Source: Mobula birostris (lineage: Eukaryota). From it: 64,000 bases of DNA. The position numbers and the translations under genes were made by a program. A model generated the notes under the pieces. The model searched no databases, was not told where the DNA came from, and saw only the letters and a program-made list of their open reading frames with translations. The stretch covers positions 8,670,998-8,734,997 of the forward strand of contig NC_092374.1 of assembly GCF_030028105.1 (NCBI RefSeq), written 5' to 3'. Below are positions 14,870-20,230 of this stretch, one piece after another; positions within the stretch are counted from its first letter, which is position 1; every line of letters begins with the position of its first letter.

Positions 14870-15455
14870 GATGTGCAGAAGAGCATCCAGCAAACGTCAC
14901 TGCCTTAGGCTCTGCGAGGAAGAATTTCAGACTCTTTGGATATGTAGCTGTTAACCTAAGAGCTTGTGGATGCTCTTAAATGTCAGCTGAAGTCCTTGCT
15001 CTTAGAATTTAGCTGAAAGTCCTTGATAATGTCCAAAGAAAAAGGTTATGGCGCTGCATTTACGTAATGCTGTTGTTTCTTGAAATTTAGGCCAAGTTCA
15101 AAGTCACGTTGTTTGTTACATTTTAGGCCGAAGCTCACGGTCATGCAATGTTGTTGTGAAGTGCTTTTAGTTACGTACGCGGTGTCTATAGAACAAAGCG
15201 TGCCTGAAACCTAACCAGAGCTTCTGAACAGCGCTTTTAGGAAAAGAGTCTCTCCGTCTGGAGGATCTGAGATATATGGAAAGATAGAATAGGTTAGGAT
15301 TTTTTTCCCTAGAATGTAGAAGCGTGAGAGGAGATTTGATAAAGATATACAAAAGGAGGCATGGGATAGCTTTGACAGAGAAAGTTTAGTCTGAAACAAT
15401 TCTCTGAGTCGGCCTGATTTGTTCTGTCTTCTGCTCCTGAGATTTCTCCGCAGCC
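14870..15455 (+). mobile_element. Putative ERV 5' LTR, interrupted by a CR1 scrap (about 15280-15370)
   Basis: Non-coding block directly upstream of a PBS-like sequence; no 3' LTR is available to confirm the ends. Confidence 0.4.
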
Positions 15456-15458
15456 AAA

Positions 15459-15476
15459 TGGCGATGAGGATGAGCT
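15459..15476 (+). promoter_or_regulatory. Primer-binding site, tRNA-Ser(GCU)-like
   Basis: TGGCGATGAGGATGAGCT versus TGGCGACGAGGATGGGAT (15/18; complement of the vertebrate tRNA-Ser(GCU) 3' end, from memory), positioned upstream of gag. Confidence 0.6.
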
Positions 15477-15604
15477 GAGACAAGACAGTGGGGAGTAGGC
15501 TTGAGCGGAAGCAAGACAGCGGCTCTTACGCGATTCTAGGAAAAGAACCCTCGGCGAAAAAGGAGAAGCAAAAGAGAAAGGTGCCTTCCAAGTTGGAAAA
15601 GAAA

Positions 15605-15880
15605 ACCAGTCTCCCAGCTGAAACGGGGAGACTGGTGGCCTGTCTCCCAGCTGAAAGGGGGAGACTGGTGTACCGCGTCCTACTGAAAAGGGGAGACTGG
15701 TGGCCTGTTTCCTAGCTGAAACGGGGAGCCTGGTGCCCTGCCTTCAAGCTGGAAGGGGGACGGCAGGAGGTTGTTCGCTCCTTCCAAGTTGGGAAGGAAA
15801 ATCAGTCTCCTAGTTGAAAGGGAGAGACAGGTGTCTTGCGTCCTACCTGAAAGGGGGACGGCAGGGGGTGCTCGTGGGAG
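15605..15880 (+). repeat. About 33-bp degenerate tandem repeats in the ERV leader
   Basis: CCCAGCTGAAACGGGGAGACTGGTGGCCTGT-like units, about 7 copies. Confidence 0.8.
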
Positions 15881-16031
15881 CACCAAGGTAGCTACCGATC
15901 AATTCCGTGACTGAACTCAGAGACCAGTGGAAAGACAGAGGAACCCCACCAGTGAGCGCTCATTGTGTACATAGTGTGTATAAAGAAACTTTGTGCTGTC
16001 TTAAATGAAATTAAAATCCTAACCAGGATAA

Positions 16032-16790
16032 ATGGGAAGTGTCAGCAGTCGATCGGCTCGCGCGGATCCTGCTAATAAACCCAGGAGTTCCGGAGGTAAG
16101 ACGAAGGGTTTGAACGCTCAACTGCCGGTAGGAAAAAGACCGCCAAAAAGATTAAAAAGATAAAACGGCACCACCAGCGAATAGGAGACCCCTTAGACCC
16201 GCCTGGATGCCAGGCAGGTATGGTAATCAGAGAGACCTCAGATGATCGTATTGCGGTAACATTCAGTAGTGAGTGGGCACATTGGGATTGACTGTATAGG
16301 GGAAGTTTTAATTTGAAACTAATCCAGCACTGGAAGGACACCACCTGAAATGGGGACGGCGACTCAAATTGGGATGCTGATTACATGTTCAGACGTTTTA
16401 AACGATGGAAGGAGGTGGCTAAAAGACACCAACCTCCAAAGAAAAAGGAGATTAAGCAGCCTGAAACAGAGAAGATTGGGGCTGAAACGAAACTTGCCAC
16501 GGGACTTTATCTCCAACTCCCTGTACCGGTCAGTGCCCCACTGGCATCAAATAGTGAAATAGACGATTTAATAATGACAACGACTGCCGTGGGACGACCC
16601 GCACCCTCTCCTTACAACCCCCCCCCCCCATGCCAGACGTTCAGGCACCTGACACCCCCAGGGGAGCGGACATCACTGTTACAAGAGAAGGGTCTCAGGA
16701 AAGAGGAACTGAAGCGGAGGGAGCTTTAGCAGTACTAGAGATGACTCAAAAAAAAGAGGCAGGAAAAGAGAAAAAGAGAATGGAGGATAA
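16032..16790 (+). pseudogene. gag: ERV gag remnant (matrix and late-domain region; CA and NC absent)
   Basis: MGSVSS (myristoylation-like MGxxxS), MA-like W..LYRGSFNLKLI, Pro-rich PAPSPYNPPPP; stops and frameshifts. Confidence 0.7.
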
Positions 16791-18210
16791 GCTTTTAACA
16801 GACACCTTAATTATATCTAAAAACAGCCCCGCTTCCCCTGCTGGGTCTGCAGATCATTTGTAAATTAGGGGCAACACTGCACTGTACAGCTGAAGGTATA
16901 TACAAACATACATGGAGCTTCCTCAAATTAGGGTCCCTCAAATGCTAAAATTAACGAATGGGCGAGAAAAGGACAGTTCAGAACCCATACTGTACTGTTG
17001 CCAGCTGGACAGCAATCTCTATGATTGGCAAGTTCAGAGACTGGGTGACACATTGATAGGACGAGCCAACAACCTCTACACGCAAAATCTGCAATACTTG
17101 ACTAACAGCAGCCGAGACAAGAATCAGCTCCATTGCACGGTCTGTTACACTTTACAAACTGAGCCGCACTGTGACCAGGCTGTACACTCTTATTTAAACG
17201 GTACAGCTGAAGGCAACACCGTGTGTGTATCCTGGTCGCGAGGGATTAGAGCTCCTGGTGGACTTAGTGGAAGATCAGAATAAAAAAGATTCCGACCAGG
17301 GGCTCCTCAATGGCTCATTTTACAGTGGCCATAAAACCACCAGCGAAGCCTAAAGATATCGGGACGATGGTAAAACGATTGGCGAAAGAAACCAAGGCTG
17401 TTTATACTATAACTCTGCCGGTACTGAGACAGGAAGCCCGAATAGAATTCTTTAACGAAATGGAGGGGAGAATAATGTTAAGGTCCGAGAGCTGGGCAAC
17501 AACCTTTGAAAAGCAACAGCCACCACCAGAAGATCCTTTACTTCCCCCTAGAGCCTTAGCGCGGGCACCAGGGAACCTATGGGCACAACATAAAAATCAT
17601 GTGGGAAAGGCCCAAACAGCTCCGGAGCATAAAGTTACTCTAAAAAGAACGTGCCACTGCCTTGTATTAAACAGCACAGTATATCTACTGAAGCTAAAGA
17701 AGGTGTCGCTCCAGCAATTGACTCATTTCAGCAAAGGGGTGCTGGTGACGACACAGGCATGTATAACACCCCTCTATTATCTATCTCGAAAACCGGCCGG
17801 AGAAATGAATGGCGTTTTGCGCAGGACCTAAGAGCCAGTAATAAGATATTCATCCCTAACACTCCGCTGGTGCCGGACACCAACATTATGCTTACTTCTA
17901 TACCTGCAGGTGCTAGTAGTACCTTTACTGTAGTCGATCGGTTCTCAGCACTTTTCTCCATACCTTTGCACGAGGATAGCCAGTATTCATTTGCCTTTAC
18001 TTATAAGAATGAGCGATATACGTGGACACGTCTGCCCCAGGGATATACCGAAAGTCCCAGTTAAAAATGATTTGGCCGAATGCCAGCAGTTAAAAATGAT
18101 TTGGCCGAATGCCAGCAGTCCGAATATTTCACACTGATTCAATATGCAGACAGCGTCCTGATAGCTTCTGCTACAGGGCCACAATGTCTGACCGATTCTT
18201 TTACACTCCA
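16790..18210 (+). pseudogene. pol: ERV pol remnant: protease C-terminus, 2H-phosphodiesterase-like domain, RT N-terminal half (class I/epsilon-like)
   Basis: PLLGLQIICKLGAT (PR end); LHCT 17128-17139 and AHFT 17313-17324; LWAQHKNHVG; YNTPLLSISK..WRFAQDLRASN; FAFTYKNERYTWTRLPQGYTESP; QYADS for YxDD; cut by a CR1 at 18209. Confidence 0.9.
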
Positions 18211-20230
18211 TAGAAACCATAGAAACTACAGCACAGAAACAGGCCTTTTGGCCCTTCTTGGCTGTGCCGAACCATTTTCTGCCTAGTCCCACTGACCTGC
18301 ACACGGACCATATCCCTCCATACACCTCTCATCCATGTAGCTGTGCAATTTATTCTTAAATATTAAAAAAGAACCCGCATTTAACACCTCGTCTAGCAGC
18401 TCATTCCATACTCCCACCACTCTCTGTGTGAAGAAGCCCTCACTAATGTTCCCTTTAAACTTCTCCCCCCTCACCCTAAACCCATGTCCTCTTTTTTTTT
18501 TCCCCTTGCCTCAGTGGAAAAAACCTGCTTGCATTCACTCTATCTATACCCATCATAATTTTATATATCTCTATCAAATCTCCCCTCATTCTTCTACGCT
18601 CCAGGGAATAAAGACCTAACCTATTCAACCTTACTCTGTAACTGAGTTTCTCAAGTCCCGGCAACATCCTTGTAAACCTTCTCTGCACTCTTTCAACCTT
18701 ATTTATATCCCTCCTGTAATTTGGTGACCAAAACTGAACGCAATACTCCAGATTTGGCCTCACCAATGCCTTATACAACCTCATCATAACATTCCAGCTC
18801 TTATACTCAATACTTTGATTAATAAAGGCCAATGTACCAAAAGCTCTCTTTACGACCCTATCTACCTGTGATGCCACTTTTAGGGAATTTTGTATCTGTA
18901 TTCCCAGATCCCTCTGTTCCACTGCACTCCTCAGTGCCTTACCATTTACCCTGTATGTTCTACCTTGGTTTGTCCTTCCAACGTGCAATACCTCACACTT
19001 GTCTGTATTAAACTCCATCTGCCATTTTTCAGCCCATTTTTCCAGCTGGTCCAAGTCCCTCTGCAGGCTCTGAAAACCTTCCTCACTGTCTACTACACCT
19101 CCAATCTTTGTATCATCAGCAAATTTGCTGTTCTAATTTACCACATTATCATCCAGATCATTGATATAGATGACAAATAACAATGGACCCAGCACTGATC
19201 CCTGTGGCACACCACTAGTCACAGGCCTCCACTCAGAGAAGCAATTTTCTACCACCACTCTTTGGCTTCTTCCATTGAGCCAATGTCTAATCCAATTTAC
19301 CACCTCTCCATATATACCTAGCGACTGAATTTTCCTAACTAACCTCCCATGCGGGACCTTGTCAAAGGCCTTACTGAAGTCCATGTAGACAATATCCACT
19401 GCCTTCCCTTCATCCACTTTCCTGGTAACCTCCTCGAAAAGCTCCAATAGATTGGTCAAACATGACCTACCACGCACAAAGCCATGTTGACTCTCCCTAA
19501 TAAGTCCCTGTCTATCCAAATGTTTGTAGATTCTGTCTCTTAGTACTCCCCCCAATAACTTACCTACTACCAACGTTAAACTTACTGGCCTATAATTTCC
19601 CGGATTACTTTTCGATCCTTTTTTGAACAATAGAACAACATGAGCCACTCTCCAATCCTCCGGCACCTCACCTGTAGACAGCGACATTTTAAATATTTCT
19701 GACAGGGCCCCTGCAATTTCAACACTAGTCTCCTTCAAGGTCCGAGGGAACACTCTGTCAGGTCCCGGGGATTTATCCACTTTAACTTTCCTCAGGACAG
19801 CAAGCACCTCCTCCTTTTCGATCTGTACAGTTTCTATGATCTCACTACTTGTTTCCCTTAATTCCATAGACTTCATGCCAGTTTCCTTAGTAAATACAGA
19901 CGCAAAAAACCTATTTAAGATCTCCCCCATTTCCCTTGGTTCCGCACATAGCCGACCACTCTGATCTTCAAGAGGATCAATTTTATCCCTTACATCCTTT
20001 TGCTCTTAATATACCTGGAAAAGCTCTTTGGATTATCCTTTACTTTGACTGTCAAGGCAACCTCATGCCTTCTTTTATCCCTCCTGATTTCTTTCTTAAG
20101 TATTTTCTTGCACTTCTTATACTCCTCAAGCACCTTATTTACTCCCTGTTTCCTATACATGTCATGCAACTCCCTCTTCTTCTTTATCAGAGTTGCAATA
20201 TCCCTTGAGAAGCAAGGTTCCTTATTCCCG
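18209..20230 (-). mobile_element. 5'-truncated young CR1 (same family as 43076 and 52370)
   Basis: ORFs 19133-19930 and 18476-19054 near-identical to those copies; (TTTCTATGG)n tail. Confidence 0.95.

Follow-up and report, generated by a model that had tools for sequence, protein, structure and literature searches.

A predicted CNPase-type 2H phosphoesterase domain between protease and reverse transcriptase in class I endogenous retroviruses of a likely elasmobranch genome

Results

Organization of the locus

The DNA analyzed in this work, hereafter the window, is a stretch of 64,000 nucleotides from Mobula birostris, which contains the remains of an endogenous retrovirus (ERV). The features recognized are collected in Table 1, where P0003 is a database protein of the sawshark Pristiophorus japonicus, carrying protease, the domain discussed here and reverse transcriptase (RT) in a single frame, and the loci with an L number in the table are other copies in the same genome.

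Table 1. Features of the ERV and its surroundings (positions refer to the window)
Feature	Position	Strand	Remarks
5' LTR remnant	14918..15452	+	split at about 15258-15384 by a short host repeat
Primer-binding site, tRNA-Ser(GCT) type, degenerate here	15459..15476	+	same motif after the LTR in L005, L009, L039 and others
5' part of gag, broken (putative)	16100..16785	+	from position and homology; collinear with L044 upstream of the zinc knuckle
Internal-deletion junction; rest of gag and catalytic start of protease gone	16770..16800	+	comparison with L044
Retroviral protease, C-terminal stub	16820..16903	+	68% identity to P0003 residues 53-80
CNPase-type 2H phosphoesterase domain (predicted), frameshifted	about 16975..17525	+	tblastn to the P0003 domain; predicted P0003 fold
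First His-x-Thr motif, LHCT	17128..17139	+	His in 35/41, Thr in 39/41 covering fragments
Frame break between the motifs	17196..17222	+	common to most copies of the deleted subfamily
Second His-x-Thr motif, AHFT	17313..17324	+	relatives mostly PHLT or PHVT; His in 40/43, Thr in 36/42 covering fragments
Class I (MLV-like) RT, 5' half, broken, cut off	17574..18209	+	Pfam RVT_1, E 2e-7
LINE-type RT fragments	18476..20005	-	ORFs, RVT_1 E 5e-25; beyond the ERV end

The LTR remnant resembles both terminal repeats of a natural provirus, L039 (66-88%), which are in turn 90-94% identical to each other, as well as the start of L005. LTR and leader taken together are 66-88% like those of L038 and L039, two elements placed by their domain in another family, a likeness that suggests common LTR ancestry or recombination. 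The pattern complementary to the primer site has 88 matches in the genome, and both of the two checked are tRNA-Ser(GCT) genes. Self-matches also revealed degenerate tandem repeats at 15584-15870, in the leader that runs from the primer site to gag.

No Pfam Gag match was found for the gag part of the window itself. At the deletion junction, L044 features about 1.2 kb of extra sequence, in which both a CCHC knuckle and the DTG of the protease are found; a D[TS]G motif is absent across 16000-17000 of the window, where, because of the internal deletion near 16785, only the C-terminal stub of the protease is left. At the other end, the family alignment stops at 18209, and pieces of RNase H, integrase and env were not found anywhere in the window, while relatives of this ERV encode RNase H, integrase and a TLV_coat env. 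A tandem duplication of about 28 nt within the RT (18059-18114) repeats the stretch coding for AVKNDLAECQQ. The RT of P0003 is best matched by an MLV-type RT (E 1e-51), followed by foamy virus (1e-32) and HIV-1 (1e-12). By these sequence criteria, namely the MLV-like RT, the LTRs, the tRNA primer site and the gamma-type env of its relatives, the element is a class I (gamma/epsilon-like) ERV.

The domain between protease and RT

The original prediction placed a CNPase-like 2H phosphodiesterase at 16912-17420, within about 190 codons separating protease and RT. The protease end, PLLGLQIICKLG, stops in fact at 16870 and the RT starts, with NLWAQHKNHVG, at 17574, leaving a gap of about 235 codons, with the same spacing in P0003, where it spans residues 69 to 305. 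The domain is present, with bounds to be shifted to those of Table 1, slightly beyond the end first proposed. Compared by tblastn with the 180 residues of the P0003 domain, the window aligns in three pieces (query 4-72, 77-103 and 106-180), at 33-37% identity and E 1e-15.

Frame translation confirmed both His-x-Thr motifs exactly where they had been located. The His codon of LHCT lies at 17131, inside an open frame extending from 16894 to 17283, and that of AHFT at 17316, inside a different open frame (17268-17831); the two are 185 nt, or 61.7 codons, apart, which implies a net frameshift, as was also anticipated. In P0003 and P0001, two relatives naturally free of breaks, the two histidines are separated by 62 and 63 residues. 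The window's own copy of the domain is thus dead. Domestication of this copy was considered and rejected, in view of the frameshifts and of a dN/dS of 0.83 within its family (16 of 28 pairs usable), indicative of near-neutral decay.

Part of this damage is shared. Of 37 copies compared near 16785, 22 have the junction of the window and 7 lack it, with 8 that could not be assigned. The frame break between the motifs is that of the window in 18 of the 22 copies with the deletion, and at 17196-17222 the frame is different in 6 of the 7 copies without it. Some of the copies are near-duplicates, so that the independent counts are lower. The nested losses suggest a non-autonomous lineage, which likely multiplied in trans after it had lost first gag and protease sequence and later the frame of the domain. 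The loci of this deleted subfamily (L002-L030, L059, L097) are widely dispersed.

Conservation across ERV families

Two genome searches returned 79 and 112 matches to the domain, both figures being lower bounds. The domain-bearing ERVs belong to at least 7 families, which are 18-40% identical within the domain when long fragments are compared. Several natural copies have both motifs in one frame, together with the protease (P0001) or the start of the RT (P0002). Of 91 natural in-frame fragments, 65 were aligned under the P0003 domain, which formed the first row; fragments that were short, nearly duplicated others or went out of frame in the middle were left out.

In this alignment, median column agreement is 0.14, and the P0003 residue is kept in every family at 13 of the 128 columns covered by 6 or more families; eight of these 13 are in or beside the two motifs. 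The first motif is kept in all 7 families, the second His in 6 out of 6 and the second Thr in 5 out of 6, the sole fragment covering this position in the sixth family having a Ser; since fragments were picked by likeness to a family profile, which favors motif-bearing pieces, these conservation figures are inflated. Members of the families therefore keep both His-x-Thr motifs, in accord with the original prediction.

Between subfamilies C1 and C2 dN/dS is 0.35 (25 pairs, dS 0.65, unsaturated), a value which, allowing for the low bias of NG86 on open-frame fragments, shows purifying selection to have acted between subfamilies, as far as it can be gauged from substitution patterns. Ratios within families range from 0.45 to 0.95, the highest being that of C2; the comparison of A with E gave 0.88 (5 pairs), and for most other pairs of families dS is at or near saturation. 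Pieces aligned by tblastn to P0003 are about 26-45% identical in the domain vs. about 38-71% in the RT.

Two clusters of copies are worth recording. At 23.8-24.6 Mb of G000:C34 one ERV subfamily, with a near-neutral dN/dS of 0.95, has expanded locally in tandem (L036, L064, L084-L086, L094, L096). Along G000:C17, from about 5 to 85 Mb, about 74 dispersed matches to the tRNA-Ser(GCT) 3'-end pattern are found; one of the domain-bearing ERV families is present on this contig too, in many near-identical copies, and matches and copies possibly form one large repeated unit.

Outside this genome, searches of protein collections found no homologue other than P0003, and a search of viral contigs gave no match to the domain; since broken ERVs seldom enter such collections as predicted proteins, the protein searches are a poor guide to range. 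Since the only protein homologue found comes from a sawshark, the elasmobranch setting originally proposed is likely.

Predicted fold of the domain

Sequence comparison did not connect the domain to known 2H families. Pfam scans, including PF05881, gave no CNPase or 2H match at significance (one LigT_PEase row had E 0.13), PDB sequence searches gave no 2H or CNPase match, and alignment by hhalign to the last exon of host CNP reached a probability of 2.5%. The host CNP gene exists in the genome and is the only locus retrieved by a PF05881 genome search.

Structure searches, performed on P0003 and not on the broken letters of the window, were more informative. With residues 103-285 of P0003, the Atlas search found vertebrate CNPase at TM 0.73 over 168 residues, the next named family, tRNA ligase CPD, having a TM of 0.58 or less. 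An AF2 model of the P0003 domain (pLDDT 68.8) had 50 PDB matches at E<=1e-3, and among the matches listed all are CNPase or RICH, the best with E 4e-8. The exhaustive aligner VIA gave Z 13.0 for mouse CNPase (rmsd 4.0, 179 aligned), as opposed to 6.0 for rotavirus VP3, 5.2 for Acb1, 5.1 for MHV ns2, 4.2 for both AKAP18 and plant CPDase, and 3.9 for the penguinpox PDE; the comparison list held no tRNA-ligase CPD chain, a family therefore not excluded by these Z values. Structural identity to CNPase is 13-18%. A feature search by language model pointed to tRNA-ligase CPD-like and viral 2H clusters, and not to CNPase by name; tRNA-ligase CPD-like enzymes likewise open 2',3'-cyclic phosphates. A copy from the genome itself, L032, modeled with a pLDDT of 47.6, has CNPase as first Foldseek hit at E 0.012, below significance, and only Z 2.3 by VIA.

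Structural comparison of the P0003 model with CNPase, AKAP18 and the viral 2H enzymes thus bears out the assignment first made, a CNPase-type 2H fold clear of the AKAP and viral enzymes; together with the class I RT, it supports the placement of such a domain between protease and RT of an ERV. The predicted structure is a two-lobed 2H fold, of the CNPase clade by closest whole-domain match. That the motifs are chance matches within a decayed linker might be argued from the lack of any significant Pfam or PDB sequence match to a 2H family. Motifs and spacing are, however, conserved across 7 families and in a second species, and three structure searches are concordant, so that chance, largely refuted by the latter, was rejected and may be regarded as most improbable. 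We consider it very nearly certain that the domain in the window is beyond chance and of the CNPase-type 2H kind.

In the model, a helix (127-142) follows the second motif at the place of CNPase alpha7, within a block whose pLDDT is 76-79 over 131-150; alpha7 has been called unique to CNPase and tied to 2',3'-cyclic specificity, in the available part of PMC4643303. No N-terminal P-loop kinase-like domain is present in P0001 and P0003, where the domain directly follows the protease. When residues are located by their offset from the motifs, without residue-level superposition, the position of CNPase Phe235 is a Tyr in 32 of 41 fragments and that of Gly324 a Gly in 27 of 36, while the Arg307 position is hydrophobic in 41 of 43 and the Val321 position a Lys in 32 of 37; the Tyr168 position reads Leu in a simple register, which is itself uncertain. 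Some of the binding residues of CNPase are hence not kept, and the substrate may have changed.

Discussion

Proposed origin and function of the domain

The data suggest that an early aquatic class I retrovirus may have captured a host CNP gene. The domain would be made as part of Gag-Pol, packaged in the virion and released by the protease. Its chemistry would be CNPase-like, one His activating a water molecule and the other protonating the 3'-O, to yield a 2'-phosphate and a 3'-OH. The virus could benefit by stripping the cyclic-phosphate ends that host endonucleases leave on primer tRNA, genome RNA and RNA fragments, and their removal might either heal RNA ends or hide them from sensors. CNPase can replace the CPD of yeast tRNA ligase, as reported in the part of PMC4643303 available to us. 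Taken as a whole, the mechanism, that of a virion-packaged CNPase-type 2',3'-cyclic-phosphate phosphodiesterase acting on RNA ends or on nucleotides, is proposed with moderate confidence.

Both RNA-end processing and antagonism of nucleotide second messengers were put forward in the original prediction. As the fold is nearest to CNPase and far from the viral enzymes acting on 2-5A or cGAMP, opening of cyclic phosphates appears likelier than destruction of a second messenger: judging from the modeled CNPase-like fold with its alpha7-like helix, the former role fits better and the latter is less supported. An enzyme derived from CNPase and re-aimed at 2'3'-cGAMP or 2-5A, which we consider unlikely, deserves some weight in view of the altered pocket and of an array of OAS-like genes in the host. 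The departure of the pocket from CNPase is itself conserved, a Lys taking the position of Val321, and the domain diverges faster than the RT; the array, about 7 genes in tandem, lies at G000:C36:30618571-30907257 (L099-L104). Moreover, 2H folds have repeatedly been adapted to 2-5A and cGAMP substrates in viruses, according to the accessible parts of PMC11410667 and PMC8406329. Against this stand the Z values of known 2-5A and cGAMP enzymes, 4-6 vs. 13 for CNPase, the presence of the alpha7-like helix, and the membership of the tested enzymes, as far as described there, in another 2H clade. A Pfam search of the genome for RNase L and IRE1 gave two clear loci, both IRE1, although an exon-wise search of this kind could miss RNase L. 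A domain encoded in Pol is, in addition, made in low amounts, a further argument against a second-messenger target.

A function mainly in binding, by which the domain would bind RNA or compete as a decoy with host CNP, seems improbable. It would make sense in view of the antiviral role of CNP, which is interferon-stimulated: according to PMC3832489, consulted in part, CNP attaches to the Gag protein of HIV and prevents the assembly of particles. The walleye viruses, described below, carry the fold in Env, in what is probably a membrane-bound cytoplasmic loop, a location in keeping with a structural role. The catalytic His and Thr are, however, among the best-kept columns over 7 families, as expected if catalysis is retained.

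Also to be considered is the opening of ADP-ribose-1'',2''-cyclic phosphate, within a clean-up pathway made of 2H and macro domains. Teleost epsilon-like ERVs bear CNPase or macro domains (PMC4977317), and viral 2H domains are found in NAD/ADP-ribose systems (PMC9503650), as far as these sources could be consulted; but plant CPDase reaches only Z 4.2, no macro domain was found in the scanned frames of relatives, a scan that was not exhaustive, and CNPase, with its alpha7, has been set against the enzymes using ADP-ribose cyclic phosphate in the available text of PMC4643303. We regard this substrate as quite improbable.

A wider evolutionary scenario may be proposed, tentatively and with considerable doubt. 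Once captured by the early aquatic retrovirus postulated above, CNPase would have been kept across many lineages, in Pol (sharks) or in Env (walleye viruses), and its pocket re-tuned by acquisition of Lys at Val321 and loss of Arg307; the outcome would be a virion counter-defence directed against cyclic-phosphate RNA marks or cGAMP, a retroviral antagonist of nucleotide immunity drawn from a 2H clade with no relation to the captured AKAP7/LigT enzymes.

Novelty and significance

Domains of this kind are already reported for bony-fish retroviruses, having been noted since 2002 and 2009, according to the sections of PMC4977317 and PMC9503650 at hand. In the literature searched, which covered main texts outside most subscription journals, neither an occurrence in cartilaginous fish nor a functional assay of such a domain was found; similarly, a search by term in the accessible parts of PMC4422223, PMC8672886, PMC12690878, PMC10835031, PMC11410667 and PMC8406329 found no mention of a retroviral PDE. 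Added here are the breadth of occurrence, with seven families in the genome of one likely elasmobranch, the contrast between Pol and the Env of walleye viruses, and the conserved change in the pocket.

The copy in the window, being a dead relic, adds little alone. If the domain is active in its relatives, a host enzyme acquired by capture would have persisted inside pol, a core gene, in a broad lineage of retroviruses, and fish retroviruses would have faced pressure from cyclic-phosphate RNA damage or from nucleotide signalling. The ERV domain would also bear on the question of the natural substrate of CNPase itself.

Comparison with known systems

The closest known relatives of the domain are the catalytic domains of vertebrate CNPase and fish RICH (PF05881; PDB 2xmi, 1woj, 2i3e). 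The similarity embraces the fold of the whole domain (Z 13.0, TM 0.73), the LHCT first motif, the second His-x-Thr, an aromatic residue at the Phe235 position, Gly324 and the alpha7-like helix. In contrast, the two histidines are 62-63 residues apart in the ERV domain and 79 in CNPase (His230-His309), identity is 13-18%, Arg307 and Val321 are not kept, and the ERV domain is embedded in a viral polyprotein, without the N-terminal P-loop domain.

The viral PDEs of the LigT/AKAP7-like type, such as MHV ns2, rotavirus VP3, the avipox cGAMP PDE and phage Acb1, are likewise virus-encoded members of the 2H superfamily with two His-x-Thr motifs. They match the ERV domain much less well in structure (Z 3.9-6.0), and both their 2H clade and the substrates on which they have been tested are different.

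In occasional cases, teleost epsilon-like ERVs carry a CNPase or a macro domain, as described in PMC4977317, which cites Basta et al. 2009. In this description, the only basis on which they were compared, they are class I fish ERVs with a CNPase-like domain, as is the case here; the host of the present elements, in contrast, is likely a cartilaginous fish.

2H domains have also been placed in a fish retrovirus and in WDSV, by the available part of PMC9503650, citing Mazumder et al. 2002. The top viral structure matches in BFVD are indeed the walleye Env proteins of WDSV and WEHV1 (A4GTG3, E 2e-5; Q9WHI8, E 7e-5), at 11-13% identity. The corrected WDSV Env features a cytoplasmic loop of roughly 170 residues (PMC3185748, in the portion available), and the match likely sits in this loop, between residues 874 and 1045. 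In the walleye dermal sarcoma and epidermal hyperplasia viruses the matching fold is part of Env, while here the domain is part of Pol: it may have moved between polyproteins, or may have been captured twice.
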